From Kofleriaceae bacterium (GTDB lineage: Bacteria; Myxococcota_A; Polyangia; Haliangiales; Haliangiaceae): DNA of 26,976 bases. The translations under genes were made by a program, and so were the position numbers. Shown here piece by piece: positions 16,149 through 26,976 of the stretch. The notes beneath the pieces are model-generated. The model was not told the DNA's origin. It saw only the letters and a list, made by a program, of their open reading frames with translations, and did no database searches. The DNA is taken from the NCBI GenBank assembly GCA_046597055.1, contig JBKJLC010000221.1:1-26976 (forward strand). Direction: 5' to 3'. Position 1 is the first letter of the stretch; the number at the start of each line of letters is the position of its first letter.

Positions 16149-16217
16149 CCGGTCGCGCTTCCGCGCGCCGTGCCTCGGACACGGCGCGGATGGCGGTGTT
16201 ACGCTGCGCTCCGCCTC

Positions 16218-19200
16218 GTGAGTCAGCGCCACGACGACACCCCGACCCGGCCGACGCCCTTCGCGGTCGCCGACGTCGACGCGTTCCGCAAGGATCCTCG
16301 CGACGAGCGTCGCTTCGCCACGTTGCGCCAGGCGCTGCGCGACGGCGGCCAGGGCGCCGCGCTCGCCGACGTGTGCGAGCTGCGCGCGCCGTTCGAGCCC
16401 AACCCGACCCGGGCCGCCGAGATCTGGGCCGAGGCCGGCGAGGCCCGCGCGGTGCTCGGTCAGGTCACGCTGGCCGAACGCGATCTGCGCGCCGCGGTCG
16501 CGCTCGAGCCTGCCAACGAGCGGGCTTGCGCGCGGCTGGTCGAGATGTTCTTCACCGCCGGCAAGTTCGCCGAGGCCGGCGACATCCTCGAGGGCGAGCT
16601 GGCCGAGCTGGCCCGCCGCGCCGAGGCCCCAGCCCCAACGCCGATCCCGCGATCGGCCGCGAGCCCCAGCGACAAGGCCAGCCTGGTCCGCCGCGCGCAC
16701 CGCCACCGGATGGCGGCCCAGGTCTGGGACGAGCACCTGGGCCGGGTCGACCGCGCGCTCTACCACTGGCAGCAGGCGTGGCGGCTCGAGCCCGAGCGCA
16801 CCGACGCGCTGGCCGCGGCGCGCACGCTGTATGCGTCGCTCGGCGACGACGCGATGGTCGCCACCCTGTACCGCGCCGAGCTCGATGTGCTCGGCGACAA
16901 GGCGCCGCCGATCGGCCGGGCCCAGCTGTGGCTCGCGCTCGGCAAGATCGAGCTGCGGCGCGGCGATGCCGCGGCCGCGGCCGCCGCGCTCGAGCAGGCG
17001 CTGCGGCTGGACCCGGGCGCCGCCAGCGCGCGCGAGGTGCTGGCCGAGGTCTACGCGTCGCCGGCGCTGGCCGAGGCCAGCGAGGATCCTGGCGCCGGGG
17101 CCCGCAAGGCCGGCGCGATCTACATCGAGCTCGGCAAGGCCGCGCTCGGCCGCGGCGACCTCGAGCACGGCCTGATCTTCCTGCGCCGCGCGGTCGGCAT
17201 CGATCCGTTCGACCCGGGCGCGACCGCCGAGCTCGAGCAGGCGCTGCGCGCCGCTGGCAAGTGGGAGGAGCTCGAGCGGGTCCTGGCCCAGCGCATCTCG
17301 CTCACCGAGGACGAGGCCGAGCGGGTCGAGCTGCTCACCCGCAAGATCGAGCTGCACGAGCGCGAGCGACCCGACCGCGCCGCGCTGATCGCCGCGCTGG
17401 GCGAGCTGTCGCTGCACCAGCCGCCGCACGGCCCGGCCGCGACCCGGCTGCGCCAGCTCCTGCGCGAGGACCAGCGCTGGGCCGAGCTAGCCGCGCTGAT
17501 CGAGCGCGACCTCGCCGGCCATGCCGACGATCTCCAGGCCCAGGTCGCCGAGACCCTCGAGCTGGCCGCGCTCACCCGCGAGCACCTCGGCGAGAAGGAC
17601 CGCTCGGCCGAGCTGCTGCACCAGGCGTTGTCGCTGGATCCATCCAACGAGGACGCGCTGGCCCGCTACGTCGATCACTTCCGCGAGCGCCGCGACTTCC
17701 GCGGCCTGGCCGATCTGTACGAGTTCTCGCTCGAGAACGCGCGCGAGTCCGGCTCGCAGCCGGCCGATCTGGTCCGCCGCCTGGAGGAGATCGCGCAGAT
17801 CTGCGAGCTGCGCCTGGGCGACGTGCCGCGCGCACTCGACGCCTGGCGCCGCATCGAGGAGATCGAGCCGGGCAGCCCCAAGGCCCGCGAGGCGGTGCGC
17901 CGGCTGTCGGCGCGCGCCAAGATGTGGGAGCAGCTGGTCGCGGTGCTCGACGGCGAGGCCCAGGCCGCGGCGTCGTCGAGCGAACGGGCCGGCACCCTGC
18001 GCCGGATCGCCCAGACCTACCGCGAGCGCCAGGTCGAGCCGCGCCGCGCGATCGCGCTGTACGAGGAGGTCATCGAGCTCAGCCCCAATGACGACGGCGC
18101 GCTCAAGGCGCTAGCCGAGCTGTACGAGCGCGAGAACGACGACACCGGGCTGGCCCGCACGCTGCGTCGCCAGCTCGAGCTCGACAACCGCCGGCTCGCC
18201 GCCGAGATGGCCGCCGCCGGCAAGCCCGCGACCGCCGCCCGCGAGTGGCCGGTCGGCAAGCGGGTCGAGCGCCTGACCGTGCTGCGCCGCCTCGGCGGCA
18301 TGTGCGAGCACCGCCTGGCCGACGCCGACGGCGTGGTGTTCGCGTGCGGCGGCATCCTCGAGATCCTGCCCGGCGACCGCGACGCGCTCGACCGCATGGA
18401 GCGGGTGCTCGAGCAGGCCGGCGATCTCGAGCGGCTCGAGCAGACGCTCGAGTACCACGCGGCCTCGGCGACCGGCCCGGCCGAGCGGGCCCGGGTCCAC
18501 CGCCGCCTGGCCAAGATGGCGGCCGACGCCGGCCACGACACCCGTGCGCTCGAGCGCTGGGAGCAGGCGCTCAAAGCGGCGCCGACCGACGAGGAGATCC
18601 TCGCCGCGGTCGCCGATCTGTACGAGAAGGCCCACCGGTTCGGCGAGCTGGCCAGCGCGCTCGAGCGGCTCGACGCGGTTCGCTACCCGTCGACCACCGC
18701 GCCGCCGGCGCCCGGCTCGGCCCCGGCTGCGTTGCGCGCCCGCGATCTCACCCGCTACGCCCGCATCGTCGACGACAAGCTCGGCGACGGCCAGCGCGCG
18801 ATCAAGGCATGGGAGCGGCTGCGCGACGCAACCCCGCGCGACCGCGCGGCGCTCGACGCGCTGGCCCGCCTGTACCGCGGCGCGGCCCGCTACCGCGAGC
18901 TGGCTGAGCTGCTCGCGGTCCACGTCGAGGTGTTCGCGGTCGATGACGTGGCCCGCGCCACCGCCGCCGCCCGCGAGCGCGCGACCGTGCTCGCCGAGCG
19001 GCTGGGCGCGACCGAGGACGCGATCCGCCAGCTCGAGCGGCTGGTCGCCGAGCTCGACCCGACCGACCTCGACGCCCACACCATGCTGCGCCGCCTGCAC
19101 GAGGTGCGCGGCGACTACCAGGCCGCGGTCAAGGTCGCCGAGCGCGAGCTGTACCTGGTCGCCGAGCCGGCCGCCAAGATCGTGCGCGCCCTCGAGATCG

Positions 19201-22200
19201 GCGTGGTCTGTCGCGATCGCCTCGGCGATCCGGCGCGCGCGCTGCAGGCCTACGAGCGCGTGCTCGCGATCGATCCGCACCACGACGAGGCGCTGGCCGC
19301 CGCCGCCGATCTGCACGAGCGGCTCGGCGACTTCAGGAGCGCGATCCGGGTGCTCGAGCGCCGGATGACGCGCATCGAGGACGTCCGCCACAAGAAGGCG
19401 CTGCTGGCGCGGCTGGCCACGCTCACCGCCGAGAAGCTCGGCGACCAGAAGGCCGGCTTCAGGTACTGGCGCCGGGCCCACGACGAGGCGCCCGACGCGA
19501 GCACGCTGGCCGAGCTCAAGCGCGCCGCCGAGGCCTACGGGCTGTGGCGCGAGCTGGCCGAGGTGTGGAGCGACGAGCGCAGTCGCCTGCTCACAGCCGG
19601 GGGTGGCGGCGTGCCGTCCGACCTCGACGCCTACGTCGGCGCCAGCCGCGAGCTCGCCAGCGTGTGCGAGCGGCGGCTGTCGGACCGGCCGCGCGCGATG
19701 ACCGCGCTGCACGAGGCGCTCGCGGTCGCGCCGCGCGACGCCGCGCTCCTGGCCGAGGCCGAGCGGCTGGCCGCCGAGGGCGATCAGCGGCCGCTGTGGA
19801 AGCAGCTCACCGACGGCTACGACCTGGCGCTGCGAGCGGCACCGGCGGCGGCCCGGGTCGAGCTGCACCAGAAGAAGGGCCGCGTGCTCGACGAGCGGCT
19901 GGGCGAGCCCAAGCCGGCCGCGGCCGAGCTGCTCGCGGCGTTCGCGTGGGCACCCGATCGCGATGACCTGCGCCAGAGCCTGTACAAGCTCGCCGAGAAG
20001 AACCGCACCTGGGGTGACGTGATCGCGGTCGAGACCGCGCTGGCCGAGCGCGCCGACGGCGCCGACCGGCTGGCCGCGCTGCGCCGTCGCGCCCAGGTCA
20101 TCGAGGAGCACCTGAAGGACCTGCCGCGGGCGTTCCGCGGTCACCTGGTCGGGTTCCTGCTCGCGCCCGAGGACGCCGACACCCTCGCTCATCTGTGGCG
20201 GCTGGCGCGCGCGATCGGCCGCTACCGCGAGGCGGACCGGACCCCCAAACCCGAGGCCGCGCCGGCGATCATCCACGACGGACGCGGTGACGGACGCGGT
20301 GACGGACGCGGTGGCGACGGCTCGCCGCTCGGGCGCGCCGGGTTGTTCGCGGCCCCGGCCGCGCCGGCGGTCGCCGCGGCGCCAGCGGGCACCGGACGTC
20401 ACCAGCGCCGGGCGTCGACCGAGGAGCTCGGCGAGCACGACCTGCGTCGCGGGCGCACGACCCGGCCGTCAGGCGTTTCCGACGACGACGTGCCGAGCGA
20501 CGAGGACCTCGCGGTCGGCGACTCGACCCAGCCGATCGACCTCGACGAGCTGCTGCCACACGCCGGCCAGACCGGGCCGCAGCCGATCGTGGCGCCGGCG
20601 CCCGTGACCATCGGCTCGACCCGCCCCGAGCGCAACGACCGCACGATGGAGCTCGACATCGGCGACCTGGCGCCGGCGACCGGGCTCACGCGGACCGGCC
20701 GCACGCCCGGCGGGCTGCCCGGGCTGCCCGGGGTGTTCACGCGCACCAAGCTGCCGCCGCCGCCGCCCAAGGCGCCCCGGATCGAGCCCCGCGCGGGCGG
20801 ACCCACCAGCACGACCATGCCGGCGCCGGTCCCGCGCAAGGCGCAGGCGACCGTGCGTCGCCCGCCGCTGCCGCAGCTGCCTGTGCGTGCGTACGAGTCG
20901 CCGTGGGAAGAGCTCGCGGCCGCGTACGAGTCGCTGCCCGCGGTCGATCCCGGCGCGCGCACGCGCTGGCTCTACCGCGCCGCCGACGCCTGGGAGAACG
21001 GCGCCCACGACATCCCGCGCGCGTTCGACACCCTGGCCCGCGCGCTCGGCAAGGCCGGCGCCGAGCCCGGCGGGGTCGGCGAGGCCCGCGCCCGCCTGCA
21101 CCGCCTCGCCGCGGATCACGAAGGCTGGGATCGCCTGGCCGAGCTCTACGAGTCGCTGGCCGAGGAGTCACACACCGCCGAAACCGCGGCCGACCTGCTG
21201 CTCGAGGTCGCCGCGATCCGCGAGCGCCAAGGCCACGCGAGCAAGGCCGAGGCCCAGTATCGCCGCATCCTCGGCATGCGGCCCGACGACGGCAACGCGC
21301 GCGGCCGGCTCGAGGCCCTGTACCGCAGCGGTGGGCGCTGGGTCGAGCTGGCCGCCTCGCTCGAGGAGCGCACCGATCCCCGGCTGGGCTCGGCCGCGCC
21401 CGACACCGAGCGGCCGGCGCTGCTGCGCGAGCTGGCGTCGATCTACGTCGACCACCTCGGCCATCCCCACGACGGCATCGACACCCTCGAGCGGCTGCGC
21501 CAGCTGGCGCCGACCGACGTCGGCGTGCTGCGCGATCTCGGCGGGCTCTACGCGCGGGTCGGGCGCTGGTCGAAGGTGATCGAGACCCACGCGCGCATCG
21601 GCGACATCGCCGAGGGCACCCCCGAGGCGCGCGAGGCCATGCGCAAGGTCGCCGTGATCTACGAGGCCGAGCTCGAGCTGCCCGAGCGCGCGATCGACAC
21701 CTACCAGAACCTGGTCGGGCAGTGGCCCGACGACGTCGACGCCTACGCCGCGCTCGATCGGCTGTGCGAGGCGCAGGCGCGCTGGCCCGACCTGGTCGAG
21801 ATCCTGCGCCGCCGCGCCGCGCTGGCCCGCGCGCCCGAGGACCGCGCGCACCTGCTGGCCCGCCGCGCCGGGATCCAGATGGACTGGCTGGGCGCGCCCG
21901 AGGAGGCCGCGACCGCGCTCCGCCACGCGCGGACCATCCTCCCCGACGACGCCGATCTGGCCGATCGACTGGTGACCGCGCTGGTCGCGGCGGCCCGCCA
22001 TCGCGAGGCGGCCGCGGTGCTCGAGGGCCGCATCGGCGCCGCCGCCGAGCGCGGGACCGGCGCCGGCGATCTCGCCGCGCTGCTGATCCGCCTGGCCCAG
22101 GTCCGCGCCGACGGCCTGGGCGATCCAGCCGGGGCCCGCGCCGCGCTCGACCGCGCGATCGCGCTGGTCCCCGATCACCCGACCGCGCTCGCCTCGCTCG

Positions 22201-24803
22201 GCAAGCTGACCACCGCCGACGAGGACCCGCGCGCGTTCGTCGCCAACAAGCTGCGCGAGGCCGAGGCCGCCACCGACGACGACGTCAAGGTCGACGCGCT
22301 CTACGCCGCCGGCGTCGCGCTGCGCGATCGGGTCGCCGATCCGACCACCGCGCGCGCGACCTTCGAGCGCATCATCGCGATCCGCGCCTACCACGCCGAC
22401 GCGATCTGGGCCCTGGCCGGCCTGATCGAGCAGGGCGGAGATCCCGAGACCGCGGCCCGGCTGCTCGAGGGCCGGCTCGACAGCGGCCAGCTCGAGCCGG
22501 CCGAGCGCGCCCGGATCCTGACCCAGCTCGCGGCGCTGGCCCGCCACGCCGGGATCGAGCTGGTCGCCGAGCGCCGGCTGTCGGAGGCGCTCGACGCCGA
22601 CGCCGGCCACGTGCCGGCCCTGATCGCGCTCGCCGATCTGTACGCGGACTCGGGCCGCTGGGACGATCTCGAGGGCTTCCTGCGCGAGACGCTCGCCGAG
22701 GGCCTGCCCGACGCGACCCCGCCGGTCACCGCCGAGCTGCACCGCCGGCTGGCCCAGGCCTACGAGCGGCTCGGCCGCGAGGACGACGCCTACGAGACGC
22801 TGCTCACCGCCGACCGCCTGCACCGCGGCCACCTGCTGATCAAGCTCGCGCTCGGCGAGAACCGCTACAAGGCCCGGCGCTGGCGCGAGGCCGCGCTGCA
22901 CCTGGGCGCGCTGGCCAGCCACGACGAGGCCGCGCGCTATGCCAGCGAGGTCGCGCAGGGCCTCTACCACGCCGCCCTCGCCGAGATCCGCAGCCTGCGG
23001 CCCGAGAAGGCGCCGCCGCTGTACGCGCGCGCGCTCGAGCTGCGCCCGAGCTACGCCCCGGCGCTGCAGGCGATGGCCGAGCTGGCGATGGAGCAGAACG
23101 ATCCGCGCCGCGCCGCCGACCTGCTCACGCGCCAGGCGATGGCGACCGAGGAGCCGGCCGAGCGCATGCGCCTGTTCGAGGCGCTGGGCGACATGGCGCT
23201 CATGATGCTGTCCGACGAGGCCCGGGCCCGGGTCTGCTACGAGGCCGCGGTCGCCGCCGCGCAGCCGCTCGACACCAAGCACGTGCCGCTGCTCGAGAAG
23301 CTGCTCGAGCGCCAGGACCTCGCCGGCGATCACCTCGGCGCCGGCAAGACCGCCGAGCTGATGTCGGCGTTCGGCACCACCGCGGCCGAGCGCGGCGCCC
23401 GCCTGGCCCGCGCCGCCGGCGACTACCTGGCCGGGGGCGATCGCGAGCGCGCCCGCGCCGCCGCCGAGCGCGCGGTCGCCGCCGACCCGTACGATCTGAG
23501 CGTGGTCGAGATCGCGAGCGAGCTGCAGGTCACGGCCGGCGACCTCGACGCCGCCGCCGAGGTGCTCGGCCGCTGCCTGTCGAGCAAGGACGACGGCGAC
23601 GAGGTGGTGCGCGCCCGCAAGTCGGCGCTGTGGCTGCGGCTCGGCGACGTCCGCCGCGACCGCGGCGACGCCAAGAGCGCCCAGGCCTCGTACGAGCGCG
23701 CGGTGGCGATCGCGCCCGAGACCGCGGCCGCGATCGGCGCCCGCCGCCAGCTGGCGACGATGTTCCACGGTGACAACGCGCGCCGGGTCGAGCTGATCGA
23801 GCTGCGCCGCGAGCTGACCGCCGCCACCACCCAGACCGACGACGTGGTCGCCTGGGCCGACGAGCTGCGCCGGGCCGGCCGCAACGACGCTGGCCGGGCC
23901 GCGCTCGATCTCGCGATCGCGCTCGGGGTGAAGCCGGACCTGCACCAGGCCGCGTTCCTCTCGATCCAGAAGCCGCACGAGCTCGCGATCGACGAGGGCT
24001 ACAAGGCCGTGGTCGACGCCGAGGCCCGCGCCGGGTTCCTCACCGATCCCGACGATCGCCCGCTCGGCCCGGTGTTTGCGACCCTGGCCGAGGCCGCCAG
24101 CCTGCTGTGGCCCGATCCCGAGGAGGCCCTGGTCCGCGCTGGCGCGGGGGGTGCCCGCCGCATGGGCGCGACCGCGCCGGTGCGCGCTGCGGTCGCCTAC
24201 CCGCGCATCGCGGCCGCGCTCGGCACCGGTCCGGTCCTCATGTACGTGCGCGACGACGCCAGCGCCCCGCCGGTGCAGCTGGTGTGCGCCAGCACGGCCA
24301 TCGTGGTGCTCGGCCCCGGCGCCGCCGAGATCGACGGCGCCATCCGGTTCGCGCTCGGCCGCGCCGCCGAACTGTCGCGGCCCGAGCGGATGATCGTCGC
24401 CGGCCTGGCCGAGGCCGAGGTCCGCTCGCTGTTCGCCGCGCTGGTGCGCTCGTTCGCGCCGGCGGCCAGCCACGCAGCGGTCCGCACCCTGTACGCCGAT
24501 CCCGACGTCCAGCGCGCCCGCGACGAGGCGCTGCGCGGCGCGCTGCCGGTCAAGCTTCGCCACCGGTTCGAGCAGCACTTCGCCGACCTCGCCCCGGCCG
24601 ACCTCGACCTCGGCGCCTACCTCGCCGCCACCCACCGGGTCGCCGACCGCGCCGGCCTCCTGGTATCCGGAGACGCCGCGGCCGCGGTCGCGGCCTCGAC
24701 CGCCCGCGGCGCCGGCGCCGAACCCATCATCCGCGCCGTCGCTGCCGCCGCCTACCTGCCGCTGCGCGCCCGCCTCGGCGTCGGCGTCCGCTCAGGCAGC
24801 TGA
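16218..24803 (+). CDS. Giant TPR-repeat protein (~2860 aa), similar in architecture to the myxobacterial AgmK class
   Basis: Many TPR-like units (e.g. ALQAYERVLAIDPHHDEALAA, AIALYEEVIELSPNDDGALKALAELYE), a central Pro/Asp/Thr-rich linker, and a C-terminal domain with RFALGR...ADRAGLL. The start is uncertain (GTG 16218 or 16170); an extended -10-like TGTTACGCT lies at 16197-16205. Confidence 0.88.
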   Translation: MSQRHDDTPTRPTPFAVADVDAFRKDPRDERRFATLRQALRDGGQGAALADVCELRAPFEPNPTRAAEIWAEAGEARAVLGQVTLAERDLRAAVALEPANERACARLVEMFFTAGKFAEAGDILEGELAELARRAEAPAPTPIPRSAASPSDKASLVRRAHRHRMAAQVWDEHLGRVDRALYHWQQAWRLEPERTDALAAARTLYASLGDDAMVATLYRAELDVLGDKAPPIGRAQLWLALGKIELRRGDAAAAAAALEQALRLDPGAASAREVLAEVYASPALAEASEDPGAGARKAGAIYIELGKAALGRGDLEHGLIFLRRAVGIDPFDPGATAELEQALRAAGKWEELERVLAQRISLTEDEAERVELLTRKIELHERERPDRAALIAALGELSLHQPPHGPAATRLRQLLREDQRWAELAALIERDLAGHADDLQAQVAETLELAALTREHLGEKDRSAELLHQALSLDPSNEDALARYVDHFRERRDFRGLADLYEFSLENARESGSQPADLVRRLEEIAQICELRLGDVPRALDAWRRIEEIEPGSPKAREAVRRLSARAKMWEQLVAVLDGEAQAAASSSERAGTLRRIAQTYRERQVEPRRAIALYEEVIELSPNDDGALKALAELYERENDDTGLARTLRRQLELDNRRLAAEMAAAGKPATAAREWPVGKRVERLTVLRRLGGMCEHRLADADGVVFACGGILEILPGDRDALDRMERVLEQAGDLERLEQTLEYHAASATGPAERARVHRRLAKMAADAGHDTRALERWEQALKAAPTDEEILAAVADLYEKAHRFGELASALERLDAVRYPSTTAPPAPGSAPAALRARDLTRYARIVDDKLGDGQRAIKAWERLRDATPRDRAALDALARLYRGAARYRELAELLAVHVEVFAVDDVARATAAARERATVLAERLGATEDAIRQLERLVAELDPTDLDAHTMLRRLHEVRGDYQAAVKVAERELYLVAEPAAKIVRALEIGVVCRDRLGDPARALQAYERVLAIDPHHDEALAAAADLHERLGDFRSAIRVLERRMTRIEDVRHKKALLARLATLTAEKLGDQKAGFRYWRRAHDEAPDASTLAELKRAAEAYGLWRELAEVWSDERSRLLTAGGGGVPSDLDAYVGASRELASVCERRLSDRPRAMTALHEALAVAPRDAALLAEAERLAAEGDQRPLWKQLTDGYDLALRAAPAAARVELHQKKGRVLDERLGEPKPAAAELLAAFAWAPDRDDLRQSLYKLAEKNRTWGDVIAVETALAERADGADRLAALRRRAQVIEEHLKDLPRAFRGHLVGFLLAPEDADTLAHLWRLARAIGRYREADRTPKPEAAPAIIHDGRGDGRGDGRGGDGSPLGRAGLFAAPAAPAVAAAPAGTGRHQRRASTEELGEHDLRRGRTTRPSGVSDDDVPSDEDLAVGDSTQPIDLDELLPHAGQTGPQPIVAPAPVTIGSTRPERNDRTMELDIGDLAPATGLTRTGRTPGGLPGLPGVFTRTKLPPPPPKAPRIEPRAGGPTSTTMPAPVPRKAQATVRRPPLPQLPVRAYESPWEELAAAYESLPAVDPGARTRWLYRAADAWENGAHDIPRAFDTLARALGKAGAEPGGVGEARARLHRLAADHEGWDRLAELYESLAEESHTAETAADLLLEVAAIRERQGHASKAEAQYRRILGMRPDDGNARGRLEALYRSGGRWVELAASLEERTDPRLGSAAPDTERPALLRELASIYVDHLGHPHDGIDTLERLRQLAPTDVGVLRDLGGLYARVGRWSKVIETHARIGDIAEGTPEAREAMRKVAVIYEAELELPERAIDTYQNLVGQWPDDVDAYAALDRLCEAQARWPDLVEILRRRAALARAPEDRAHLLARRAGIQMDWLGAPEEAATALRHARTILPDDADLADRLVTALVAAARHREAAAVLEGRIGAAAERGTGAGDLAALLIRLAQVRADGLGDPAGARAALDRAIALVPDHPTALASLGKLTTADEDPRAFVANKLREAEAATDDDVKVDALYAAGVALRDRVADPTTARATFERIIAIRAYHADAIWALAGLIEQGGDPETAARLLEGRLDSGQLEPAERARILTQLAALARHAGIELVAERRLSEALDADAGHVPALIALADLYADSGRWDDLEGFLRETLAEGLPDATPPVTAELHRRLAQAYERLGREDDAYETLLTADRLHRGHLLIKLALGENRYKARRWREAALHLGALASHDEAARYASEVAQGLYHAALAEIRSLRPEKAPPLYARALELRPSYAPALQAMAELAMEQNDPRRAADLLTRQAMATEEPAERMRLFEALGDMALMMLSDEARARVCYEAAVAAAQPLDTKHVPLLEKLLERQDLAGDHLGAGKTAELMSAFGTTAAERGARLARAAGDYLAGGDRERARAAAERAVAADPYDLSVVEIASELQVTAGDLDAAAEVLGRCLSSKDDGDEVVRARKSALWLRLGDVRRDRGDAKSAQASYERAVAIAPETAAAIGARRQLATMFHGDNARRVELIELRRELTAATTQTDDVVAWADELRRAGRNDAGRAALDLAIALGVKPDLHQAAFLSIQKPHELAIDEGYKAVVDAEARAGFLTDPDDRPLGPVFATLAEAASLLWPDPEEALVRAGAGGARRMGATAPVRAAVAYPRIAAALGTGPVLMYVRDDASAPPVQLVCASTAIVVLGPGAAEIDGAIRFALGRAAELSRPERMIVAGLAEAEVRSLFAALVRSFAPAASHAAVRTLYADPDVQRARDEALRGALPVKLRHRFEQHFADLAPADLDLGAYLAATHRVADRAGLLVSGDAAAAVAASTARGAGAEPIIRAVAAAAYLPLRARLGVGVRSGS
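20277..20312 (+). repeat. In-frame tandem repeat, 3 x GACGGACGCGGT (DGRG)
   Basis: Three perfect 12-bp units at 20277, 20289 and 20301. Confidence 0.95.
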
Positions 24804-25057: not shown

Positions 25058-25756
25058 CTACCCGCCGGCCAGCCGGCGGCGTAGCTCGGGCAGCGAGCGC
25101 CGGCTGATCCGCGCGCGCTGGCCGTCGTCGAGCTCGACCGTGCCACCGTCGCCAGCCTCGTGGACGGCGCGCACCCGGCCGAGCTGGATCAGCTCGCCGC
25201 GGTGGACGCGCACGAAGCCCCAGGGCGCCAGCCGATCGGCCAGCGCGGCCAGCGCCTCGTCGAGCAGGTGCTCGACGCCGTCGACGACGAACGCGGTGTA
25301 CTTCTGCTCCGACCAGAACCGGGTGATCGCGGTCGCCGGGTAGACGTGGACCCGATCGCCCTGGCGCGCCATCATCCGCGGCGGCGCGGCCGGCGCAGCG
25401 GCCAGGCGGGCCCGGGCCCGGTCGAGCGCGCGGGCCAGCTTGGCGAGGCCGACCGGCTTGAGCAGGTAGTCGATCGCCGACGCGTCGAAGGCGTCGACCG
25501 CGTGCTCGGCGTGCGCAGTCGTGAACACCACCGCCGGGCGCGCCTCGAGCAGCCGCGCCAGCGCCAGCCCGTCGGTGCCGGGCATCCGGATGTCGAGCAG
25601 CACGACATCGGGATCGAGCCGCCCGATCGCGAGCAGCGCCTCGTCGGCATCGCCGGCCTCACCGACCACCTCGGCGTCGCCCAGCTCGGCGACCAGCCGC
25701 GCCAGCCGCCGCCGCGCCGGCGGCTCGTCGTCGACGATCAGCACGCGCAGGGTCAC
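25058..25756 (-). CDS. LytTR-family response regulator
   Basis: REC domain LIVDDEPPARRRL, LLDIRMPGTDG, FTTAH and DYLLKP; LytTR domain FVRVHRGELI...ISRR. GTG 25756 overlaps the kinase TGA. 232 aa. Confidence 0.93.
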   Translation of the reverse strand: MTLRVLIVDDEPPARRRLARLVAELGDAEVVGEAGDADEALLAIGRLDPDVVLLDIRMPGTDGLALARLLEARPAVVFTTAHAEHAVDAFDASAIDYLLKPVGLAKLARALDRARARLAAAPAAPPRMMARQGDRVHVYPATAITRFWSEQKYTAFVVDGVEHLLDEALAALADRLAPWGFVRVHRGELIQLGRVRAVHEAGDGGTVELDDGQRARISRRSLPELRRRLAGG

Positions 25757-26865
25757 GTCGCCGGCCCCGCGGGCATGGTGATCGCGGCGCGCCAGCCCGC
25801 GGGCGGCGCCGGCCCGACCTCGAGCCGGCCGTGCGCGCCGAAACCCAGCGCCAGCCGCGCCGCCAGATCGGCCAGCGCGGTGCCGGCGCCCGGTCGCGAC
25901 GGGCCCACCGGCGCGCCGCCGCCCTCGGCCGGCTGATCCTCGACCGCCAGCTCGATCGCGTCGCCGCGGCGGTGGATCGACACCACCACCGCGGTCGCGC
26001 CCTTGCGCCGCTGCGCGCCGTGCCGGACCGCGTTCTCGGCGAGCGGCTGCAGCGCCAGCGGCGGGATGGCCAGCCCGGTCAGATCCGCGTCGCACTCGAC
26101 CCGCCAGCGCAGCCGATCGCCGAGCCGGGCCGCCTCGACCGCGAGGTAGGCCTCGACTGCGGCCAGCTCGTCGGCCAGCGCGACCGTGGGCCGTCGGCCG
26201 GCGTCGAGCGCGTAGCGGAAGACGTCGGCGAGCCGCTCCAGCGTACGCTCGGCCAGCGCCGGATCTTCGGGGATGAGCGCCGCCACCGTGTTGAGGCTGT
26301 TGAACAAGAAGTGCGGATCGGTGCGCGCCTGCAGCGCGGCCAGCTCCGCGCGCAGCGCGGCCACGCGCGCTTGCGCGGCCCGGCGCTCGGACGCGAGCGC
26401 ACGCGCCTTCATCTCGTCGACCGCCACCTGCACCCCGATCACGACCGCCGACACGACGATCAGGGTCGACCACAGCCGGGTCCGGACCTCGGCGGCCGAA
26501 CTGCCCCACAGCAGCTCGAACGCGGCCCCCGCCAGGTAGGTCGCCGGCACCACCGCGATCGCGATCGCCGCCGCGTGGCCCGCGATGCGGACCGGCCAGC
26601 CCGGCTTGCGCACGATCAGGCGTGGCCAGAGCAGCCGGTACTGCAACTCGAACAGCCCGGCACCGCAGAGCATCACCACGAATGCGTGCTGGTAGCTCTC
26701 CCACAGCTCGGGCAGCACCGGCTCGTCGCTGCGCAGGCCGATCATCGCGATCGCGAGCGGGAGGATCAGGTAGATCAGCGCGTGCGCGGCCAGCTCGCGG
26801 CGCCAGCCACCCGGTTCACGGGTGAGGTGCCACAGGCCACGCCACGGGACCTCGCCAGTCGCCAT
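25753..26865 (-). CDS. LytS/YehU-family sensor histidine kinase
   Basis: N-terminal TM helices, H-box ALQARTDPHFLFNSLNTV, YLAVEAARLGDRL and LQPLAENAVRHG. ATG 26865 is preferred because GTG 26886 lies within intron domain VI. Confidence 0.92.
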   Translation of the reverse strand: MATGEVPWRGLWHLTREPGGWRRELAAHALIYLILPLAIAMIGLRSDEPVLPELWESYQHAFVVMLCGAGLFELQYRLLWPRLIVRKPGWPVRIAGHAAAIAIAVVPATYLAGAAFELLWGSSAAEVRTRLWSTLIVVSAVVIGVQVAVDEMKARALASERRAAQARVAALRAELAALQARTDPHFLFNSLNTVAALIPEDPALAERTLERLADVFRYALDAGRRPTVALADELAAVEAYLAVEAARLGDRLRWRVECDADLTGLAIPPLALQPLAENAVRHGAQRRKGATAVVVSIHRRGDAIELAVEDQPAEGGGAPVGPSRPGAGTALADLAARLALGFGAHGRLEVGPAPPAGWRAAITMPAGPAT

Positions 26866-26976
26866 TGGTAGATTCTGCCCTTTCACTTGGGGACTTGCGT
26901 CGTAGGTGAAAGGGCAGAACCCCCTTTCAAACCGTGCGTGCGGATTACCCGCACACGGCTTACCGGTGATCTCTCG
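26864..26976 (-). mobile_element. 3' end of a group II intron (domains V and VI); the rest lies beyond the window
   Basis: Minus strand 26961-26929 AAGCCGTGT-GCGG-GTAAT-CCGC-AC-GCACGGTTT is a domain V with AGC triad and AC bulge. It is followed by GAAAGGGGG and a domain VI hairpin with a perfect 14-bp stem (26919-26906 / 26886-26873), a bulged A at 26869 and the end ...CTACCAAT. Confidence 0.9.

Follow-up and report, generated by a model that had tools for sequence, protein, structure and literature searches.

Introduction

Three target strategies have been described for bacterial group II introns, namely sequence-defined homing sites, terminators and attC sites (PMC4424553), and introns of class C (IIC) are inserted downstream of terminator hairpins or attC sites (PMC12584367 and PMC4424553). 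Insertion at start codons is known from a clade of subgroup IIB1 that includes Avi.groEL and EcKTE56.groEL; according to Michel et al. 2007, as summarised in Gomes et al. 2025 (PMC12584367), this clade is monophyletic and its members are located within or beside initiation or termination codons. In the groEL introns TAA becomes TAG by means of the first G of the intron, and the same summary characterises the clade by a CL1 reverse transcriptase (RT) with an endonuclease domain, a 300–700-nt insertion in domain I and housekeeping genes as targets. Here we describe a group II intron, and the lineage to which it belongs, at the end of a 26,976-nt contig of a Kofleriaceae bacterium (JBKJLC010000221.1, assembly GCA_046597055.1), which is taken over its whole length and called the window below. 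The window ends inside this intron, which is about 2.0 kb long, is located between the promoter-proximal start codon of a sensor kinase gene and the second codon of that gene, and brings one start codon of its own.

As in the IIB1 clade, insertion takes place in or beside a start codon, and bases at the intron end rebuild the codon. The lineage described here differs from that clade, as it is summarised in PMC12584367, by the absence of an HNH domain, a terminal ATG, a −10-type hexamer upstream of the target, an RT frame that connects to the start codon of the host and targets that are not housekeeping genes. In addition, the distance from the first intron base to the RT match is 482–609 nt in 53 of 55 copies, which leaves no room for a domain I insertion of the IIB1 type beside domains I–III. 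As far as the clade is portrayed in the summary, our lineage is not a member of it, and the habit is common to both.

With class C (GsI-IIC, 6ar1; Eubacterium rectale, 7uim) the lineage shares an RT without endonuclease, an exon pairing of about 3 nt and an expression signal as target. Its targets are, however, promoter-adjacent start codons, and its RT is almost as close to the IIB protein 6me0 (180 bits) as to the IIC proteins 7uim (195.7 bits) and 6ar1 (167.9 bits), the class being judged here from pairwise scores to solved proteins and not from a tree. IIC ribozymes are also smaller than the ribozyme of this lineage. A target of the IIC type was not seen in the 5´ flanks, which consist of a −10-type hexamer, 6–8 nt and a start codon, terminators not having been systematically sought. 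Overall, the best explanation is probably that the lineage targets promoter-adjacent, leaderless start codons, carries its own terminal start codon and has its RT translated from the captured start.

A group II intron at the start codon of a kinase gene

The last 114 bases of the minus strand (26976..26863) read cgagagatcaccggtAAGCCGTGTGCGGGTAATCCGCACGCACGGTTtgaaaGGGGGTTCTGCCCTTTCAC-ctacgacgcaagtccccaa-GTGAAAGGGCAGAATCT-A-CC-AATG and comprise, in this order, a short linker, domain V, a 7-nt joiner, a long domain VI hairpin with a bulged A, CC and AATG; all features of this region are on the minus strand. The first part (26963..26976) is intron sequence 5´ of domain V, either the 3´ side of domain IV or a linker, and is identical in a second contig of the assembly (C191). 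Domain V (26928..26962) has 14 bp with an AGC triad, a 2-nt bulge and a GUAA loop, and domain VI (26867..26924) is a 19-bp hairpin with a bulged A of the branch type (26869), which is 6 nt away from the T of AAT and 7 nt from the G of AATG. Both domains and the position of the bulged A had been proposed in an initial annotation made from the sequence of the window, and RNAfold reproduced them with 14 and 19 pairs at an energy of −53.3 kcal/mol (z = −6.53; 0 of 200 shuffled sequences were as stable). In an alignment of 33 diverse copies, compensatory changes were found at 10 of the 24 predicted domain V/VI pairs, including the domain VI stem, and domain V was kept with its catalytic triad and 2-nt bulge in 33 of 33.

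The tail ends in an ATG (26863..26865), which in the unspliced state is the start codon of a LytS-type sensor kinase gene (25753..26865; 370 aa plus stop; PF06580 His_kinase, 77.2 bits). The ATG of the response regulator gene that follows, with a LytTR DNA-binding domain (25058..25756, minus strand; PF00072 and PF04397), overlaps the kinase stop codon, and the earlier assignment of the tail to the start of a kinase/regulator operon was correct. In a related genome (G127) the kinase orthologue begins at this same ATG, with 74% identity from residue 1 on. The proposal that a group II intron sits exactly on the translation start, and that the open reading frame (ORF) keeps a start codon without splicing, is supported by these data. 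The only Shine-Dalgarno (SD)-like run, GAAAGGG (26878..26884), is located 12 nt before the ATG, and all of its bases, as had been noted, are paired on the 3´ side of the domain VI stem (RNAfold). Between the two lies CAGAAT (26872..26877), a single −10-like hexamer with A at position 2 and T at position 6, which ends 6 nt before the terminal ATG and may have a role as a promoter element.

The Rfam model RF00029, proposed in the initial annotation as a check, did not match at the gathering threshold in the whole-window search. A local search of the window gave 39.7 bits against the gathering score of 40 (E = 1.1e-6), with the domain VI half misaligned into coding sequence, and the genome search gave 37.9 bits for the window tail, again with 40 as gathering score; four of five full-length relatives reached 41–42 bits, so the model recognises the relatives and narrowly misses the window. 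The near miss, together with the lack of a PF08388 match in the assembly, would speak for a hairpin element that is not an intron, or for a coincidental overlap with the ATG. Practically no probability remains for this explanation: it is refuted by 68 of 68 tails that end in a start codon, by full-length relatives with RT/maturase and matches to the domain models D1–D4, by the RT C-terminus encoded on contig C251, and by empty sites in congeners. The ATG overlap is not chance.

Copies and empty sites within the genus

The window is contig C155, complete, of an assembly with 303 contigs and 8.4 Mb (94% complete, 7.6% contamination, 72% G+C). An all-against-all comparison of contig ends revealed 117-nt overlaps shared across the assembly, and C155 breaks at the window end because the intron is a repeat. 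The same 111 bases were found at the end of C191 and at C251:102-216. Up to ...CTACCAATG(G) these three 3´ junctions do not differ; directly after it they diverge, and the ATG opens a long ORF in each case, encoding the kinase (C155), an unnamed protein (C191) and an EAL-domain protein (C251). The expectation that other copies abut start codons is met by all three and by every one of the 68 tails mentioned above. C251 contains 101 nt of further intron sequence with the last 33 codons of a maturase-like RT ORF (...FWKGPA*).

Four other contig ends (C32, C126, C128 and C129) stop inside the 5´ end of the intron, all with TA(T/C)CCT-N6-7-ATG|GTGCGTCGTGACG. GTGCG, corresponding to the group II 5´ end GUGYG, directly follows the start codon at these four of four junctions. 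The intron body was not found in the assembly: the maturase family PF08388 gave no match, and BLAST with C251:1-216 returned only the three known tails. Thus, of the RT/maturase and 5´ end that the initial annotation had suggested looking for beyond the contig, the 5´ end and the last RT codons were recovered, and the body is unassembled in this genome. The EAL-gene copy (the last 257 nt of C32, minus strand, and C251:1-216) is internally deleted, about 85 bases of intron being followed directly by RT coding sequence, and its domain V triad is CGC instead of AGC.

A comparison with intron-free orthologous loci had also been suggested, and a single ATG was found at all three sites tested. The occupied kinase site reads ...TATCCT-cgcgctg-ATG | GTGCG...intron...CTACCA-ATG | GCG ACT, and the orthologous site of G127, ggcggTATCCTcgccgtgATGtcggcc, reads ...TATCCT-cgccgtg-ATG-TCG with one ATG. 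The upstream 1.5 kb of G127 match the left end of C129, therefore C129 is the 5´ flank of the intron of the window. The site of the unnamed protein (C126/C191) is empty in G134, G120 and G125, with TACGCT, TACCCT and TACGCT, respectively, each followed by N6 and a single ATG GCG CCG TTC, and the upstream DNA matches C126. The EAL site (C32/C251) is empty in G133 (TATCCT-N6-ATG), the upstream DNA of which matches C32. The intron is thus polymorphic for presence and absence within the genus at three of three insertions tested. At all three, the target itself provides the hexamer and one ATG, to which the intron adds about 2 kb with one further ATG. Since group II introns produce no target duplication, one of the two ATGs belongs to the element.

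A widespread lineage of full-length introns

The intron tail was matched in 53 of 138 genomes of the same family (a tally including G038), and 14 full-length copies of 2,008–2,041 nt were obtained from seven same-family genomes. All 14 have GTGCG(C/T)CGTGA directly after ATG and end with CTACCAATG. The encoded protein is a group II RT/maturase (TIGR04416, 409.8 bits with a cut-off of 300; Pfam RVT_1 and GIIM); Pfam revealed no HNH endonuclease domain in it, and about 40 aa follow its maturase domain. The 5´ part of the full-length relatives is matched by the Rfam models for domains D1–D4 (RF02003 with 71–81 bits, and RF02005). In one genome (G104) two introns are arranged in tandem (L052, G104:C43:29600-34800, minus strand), where the terminal ATG of the first is followed immediately by the GTGCG of the second, showing that the tail of the intron can itself serve as target.

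One genome per species was scanned with seven aligned RTs as query, and of the 601 relatives obtained the best 80 were examined. Going by the record titles, the hosts include Myxococcota (Polyangiaceae, Sorangium, Archangium, Nannocystis, Sandaracinaceae), Actinomycetota (Acidimicrobiia, Solirubrobacterales, Pseudonocardia, Saccharopolyspora, Mycobacterium), Gamma- and Betaproteobacteria, Acidobacteriota, Planctomycetota, Spirochaetia, Chloroflexota and others. Two loci (L159 and L160) are on archaeal-labelled contigs, with titles naming metagenome-assembled genomes of Nitrososphaerota and Thorarchaeota, and their RTs are 46% identical to the query alignment. More distant RTs (45–54% identity) belong to L150, L152–L157 and L164, which have a longer, different domain VI ending in ...CCTACCTCAC or similar and a start codon at neither junction; these introns form a natural outgroup. 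In L044–L046 (G136), L053 (G098) and L054 (G103) the RT ORF lacks its usual stop codon and reads through domains V and VI. These read-through ORFs end at the TAG of ...GTAGGATCTACCAATG, in the G136 copies 12 nt before the intron end.

The lineage is apparently an undescribed, widespread variant of group II introns. A published description of it was not found in the literature searched, in which Michel et al. 2007 is represented through PMC12584367 only and may say more; the terms 'start codon' and 'ATG' are absent from PMC4424553, PMC3552965 and PMC3753933.

Start codons at both junctions and a hexamer upstream

To locate the 5´ ends we used a profile built from the first 140 bases of the intron and free of exon sequence, and 60 ends could be placed. 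The triplet before the intron is a start codon in 55 of them (ATG 45, GTG 9, TTG 1), and the five others are 5´ ends of more distant lineages. The initial annotation had asked whether the 5´ exon ends in AT. It does not: it ends in a whole ATG at the four junctions of our genome and in a whole start codon at most of the others, so the element adds a complete start codon. In several sub-lineages from Actinomycetota (L115, L117, L122, L123, L127–L136 and others) TTGCG or TCGCG replaces GTGCG after the start codon, and the 5´ flanks of these sub-lineages more often end in GTG or TTG.

At the other end, tails closing with xxACC(A/T)(A/G)TG were found in 28 of 28 and 10 of 10 distinct loci of the family and in 29 of 38 loci of the RT scan, the nine misses being eight outgroup introns with other tails and L145. 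A start codon closes every copy that has this domain VI tail (66 ATG and 2 GTG). No part of the intron tail is more conserved than this terminal triplet, of which GTG is the sole variant. An ORF of at least 60 codons follows in the frame of this ATG in 63 of the 68, compared with 22 and 40 in the other two frames, and the target genes are diverse and not housekeeping genes.

For 52 start-codon junctions the flank covers 25 nt or more, and 49 of these have a hexamer TANNNT upstream, separated from the start codon by 6 nt (32 cases), 7 nt (14) or 8 nt (3). The three exceptions have GACAAT, TGACAT and no hexamer, respectively. The inner bases of the hexamer track the composition of the host, with TATAAT, TAGAAT and TACAAT in Proteobacteria and Acidobacteriota and TAGGCT and TATCCT in Myxococcota. 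A −10 hexamer ends 6–8 nt before the start of the transcript. A hexamer located 6–8 nt before the start codon would therefore place the transcript start on the A of the ATG and yield a leaderless mRNA. In the genome of the window, TANNNT-N6-7-ATG occurs at 670 sites, 531 of them with an in-frame ORF of at least 100 codons, against a background with other spacers of 234 sites for N10-11 and 150 for N2-3; such starts are thus common in this genome and yet belong to a minority of its genes.

The hexamer could also be part of a homing site that is read by the RNA or the protein of the intron, in which case the link to leaderless genes would be incidental. Group II introns normally read 10–15 nt of the 5´ exon (PMC12584367), TANNNT lies where intron-binding site 2 (IBS2) would lie, and the LytS target is located at a stop/start overlap within an operon. 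Base pairing would, however, need a fixed register and contiguous bases, whereas fixed bases are confined to T1, A2 and T6, the inner three are free to vary, and the spacer takes 6, 7 or 8 nt, a distribution typical of −10-to-start distances. Moreover, a frame that leads from the host start codon into the RT makes sense only if this codon is translated. We therefore regard a homing-site element as unlikely. Because only three positions are invariant, the spacer is variable and the hexamers have the flavour of the host taxon, recognition of a working promoter, or dependence on one, fits better than base pairing.

The pattern could likewise result from survival, if the intron inserted after many ATGs by pairing of 3 nt and only those copies behind promoter-adjacent starts expressed their RT and multiplied. 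A 3-bp exon pairing alone cannot specify a site, and the tandem insertion in G104 took place after a terminal ATG with TAGATC upstream, which is not TANNNT; both would suit such a filter. Against it, dead or decayed copies are also located at TANNNT-ATG sites (the frameshifted L039, L041 and L047 and the internally deleted C32 copy), and none of the 52 start-codon junctions with flank lies elsewhere, barring the three without a strict hexamer. This makes survival alone quite improbable as the origin of the pattern.

The reading frame from the host start codon into the RT

Read in the frame of the host start codon, 27 of 55 copies have no stop anywhere in the 5´ part of the ribozyme (about 480–610 nt), and this frame continues into the RT, resulting in ORFs of 617–680 codons. 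Neither of the other two frames is stop-free in any of the 55, and the mean number of stops is 1.6 in frame 0 and 4.8 and 5.9 in the others. For 21 of the remaining 28 copies the frame-0 stop lies within −4 to +12 nt of a start codon of the open RT frame, in arrangements like ATGGTGA, TCATGA and TAGggcATG. Nine of the 14 copies of the family are continuous, two are coupled via ATGA, and three are frameshifted and look dead. The 113 bases of intron 5´ end assembled in our genome have no stop in frame 0 and one and two stops in the other frames. Neither this continuity of the RT frame with the host start codon nor the −10-type hexamer upstream of the targets had been part of the initial annotation.

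Bacterial intron ORFs are normally confined to domain IV. An RT frame that is continuous with the upstream exon and passes through the ribozyme domains before domain IV occurs in the yeast mitochondrial introns cox1 aI1 and aI2. These belong to the organellar IIA introns and have a long upstream exon, whereas the introns described here are bacterial and the exon contributes only the start codon to the frame. In most group I introns an in-frame stop just after the 5´ junction keeps ribosomes off the ribozyme (PMC3073962); our lineage would do the opposite, with ribosomes that start at the captured host start codon providing for expression of the RT.

Splice register and recognition of the start codon

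Since a start codon is repeated at both ends of the intron, more than one splice register can be drawn, and the registers ATG| and AT|G are equally possible on the sequence. Group II introns end in AY, and the branch A is normally located 7–8 nt from the 3´ end. In the register ATG| the intron would be GUGCG...CCAAUG, with a canonical 5´ end, invariant G3, C4 and G5 and the branch A at −7; it would, however, end in UG, and the introns of some actinobacterial sub-lineages would begin with UUGCG or UCGCG. In the register AT|G the intron would be G-GUGCG...CCAAU, with a canonical AU end, a G that is always first and a constant first base of the 3´ exon, at the cost of one extra 5´ base and a branch A at −6. 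The initial annotation had regarded the 3´ end as atypical in either case. This applies to the dinucleotide in the first register and to the branch distance in the second, the other property being normal in each. The ligated exons are identical in both registers.

The annotation had proposed that the intron lies inside the start codon, that its terminal AU and the G of the exon rebuild the ATG, and that the output of kinase and regulator is set by splicing or by unfolding of domain VI. The register fits, but it is one of those that fit, and the proposal as a whole is possible without being the likelier course. It gains from the canonical AU end, from the first base of the 3´ exon, which is always G, and from the G that stays the first intron base in the TTGCG and TCGCG sub-lineages; the C of the CAU loop described below could pair with that G, similar to the delta-delta´ pairing in IIA introns. 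The pairing of the SD-like run in domain VI would suit the regulatory part. On the other side, a complete start codon closes the 5´ exon, so that the intron would begin with GGUGCG, the branch A would be 6 nt from the end, and GCG is invariant at positions 3–5 only in the register ATG|. The regulatory role is opposed by the same element sitting on unrelated genes.

A consensus fold of 20 diverse 5´ parts contains a conserved hairpin in domain I, GCCG-cuCAUgUCa-CGGC. Its loop CAU can pair with AUG, with GUG via a G-U pair and less well with UUG, and the hairpin may represent the loop of exon-binding site 1 (EBS1). The first five bases of the loop, CUCAU (alignment columns ~285–305), are presumably the same as in the anticodon loop of the initiator tRNA.

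Capture of leaderless start codons as the preferred explanation

Capture of leaderless starts, translation of the RT from the host AUG and provision of a spare start codon are, as a pattern of sequence, well supported. Under this explanation the intron would be transcribed from the host promoter with a 5´-terminal AUG, and the RT would be made from the captured start codon, the frame being open through domains I–III into the RT or ending at the start codon of the RT. The CAU loop of domain I would pair with AUG or GUG, and the intron might act on DNA that is opened at the promoter. Splicing in either register would restore the ATG and codon 2. Without splicing, the terminal ATG would keep the kinase frame startable, while the nearest SD-like run of the copy in the window would be sequestered in domain VI. 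The 3´ strand of domain VI is AAGGA/TAGGA-TCTACCA-ATG in many copies, with AGGA 7 nt before the ATG, and many tails can alternatively be read as TAGGAT, 6 nt and ATG. An AGGA or a −10-like hexamer would thus come along with the intron, and insertion may cost the host little even if the intron is not spliced. The complete chain, in which the CAU loop reads AUG or GUG like an initiator anticodon, the host promoter drives transcription, the RT is translated from a 5´-terminal host AUG and the target receives a replacement start codon, is put forward tentatively, as one possibility.

Several observations weigh against this explanation. At the kinase site the upstream ORF ends in a TGA that overlaps the ATG (TGATG), so the kinase could be translated by coupling within an operon and not from a leaderless mRNA. 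A scan of the intron tail in the window for two-hexamer promoters gave 0 sites, and neither splice register is fully canonical. The variability of third codon positions is raised only weakly in the 5´ part of the ribozyme (0.76 versus 0.67 and 0.69, p = 0.075), so that the open frame seems to be selected and not a particular peptide. The body of the intron in the window is not assembled, so its own RT frame is not readable. With 4 of 20 sequencing runs aligned (X3, X15, X17 and X19), metatranscriptome RNA contigs cover only 26919–26976 with 90–99% likeness, which corresponds to the conserved domain V; among the 20 runs the three strong matches are soil DNA, and the six RNA runs contain only 0.06 of the sampled words. 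Finally, the copies are related by descent, so the counts overstate their independence, and those from the scan stem from the best 80 of 601 relatives.

If capture of leaderless starts is true, promoter-adjacent start codons would be a fourth target strategy of bacterial group II introns and the first that is tied to the initiation of transcription and translation, and the lineage would provide an example from bacteria in which translation of an intron protein begins in the upstream exon and stays in frame. It could serve as a natural marker of leaderless genes across phyla and as a compact system to study how ribosome traffic and ribozyme folding coexist.

Consequences for annotation and further features of the window

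Gene callers will mis-annotate genes that carry such an intron, and contigs break at these repeats, as C155 does. In the window, the kinase frame is open upstream of the ATG through domains VI and V to the end of the contig (25753..26976, minus strand; 407 aa, 5´-open) and contains a GTG at 26886, thus a gene caller could extend the kinase into the intron. Beside the two-component operon, on the opposite strand, lies an open frame of 2,877 codons (16170..24803, plus strand); long open frames are common in DNA with 72% G+C.

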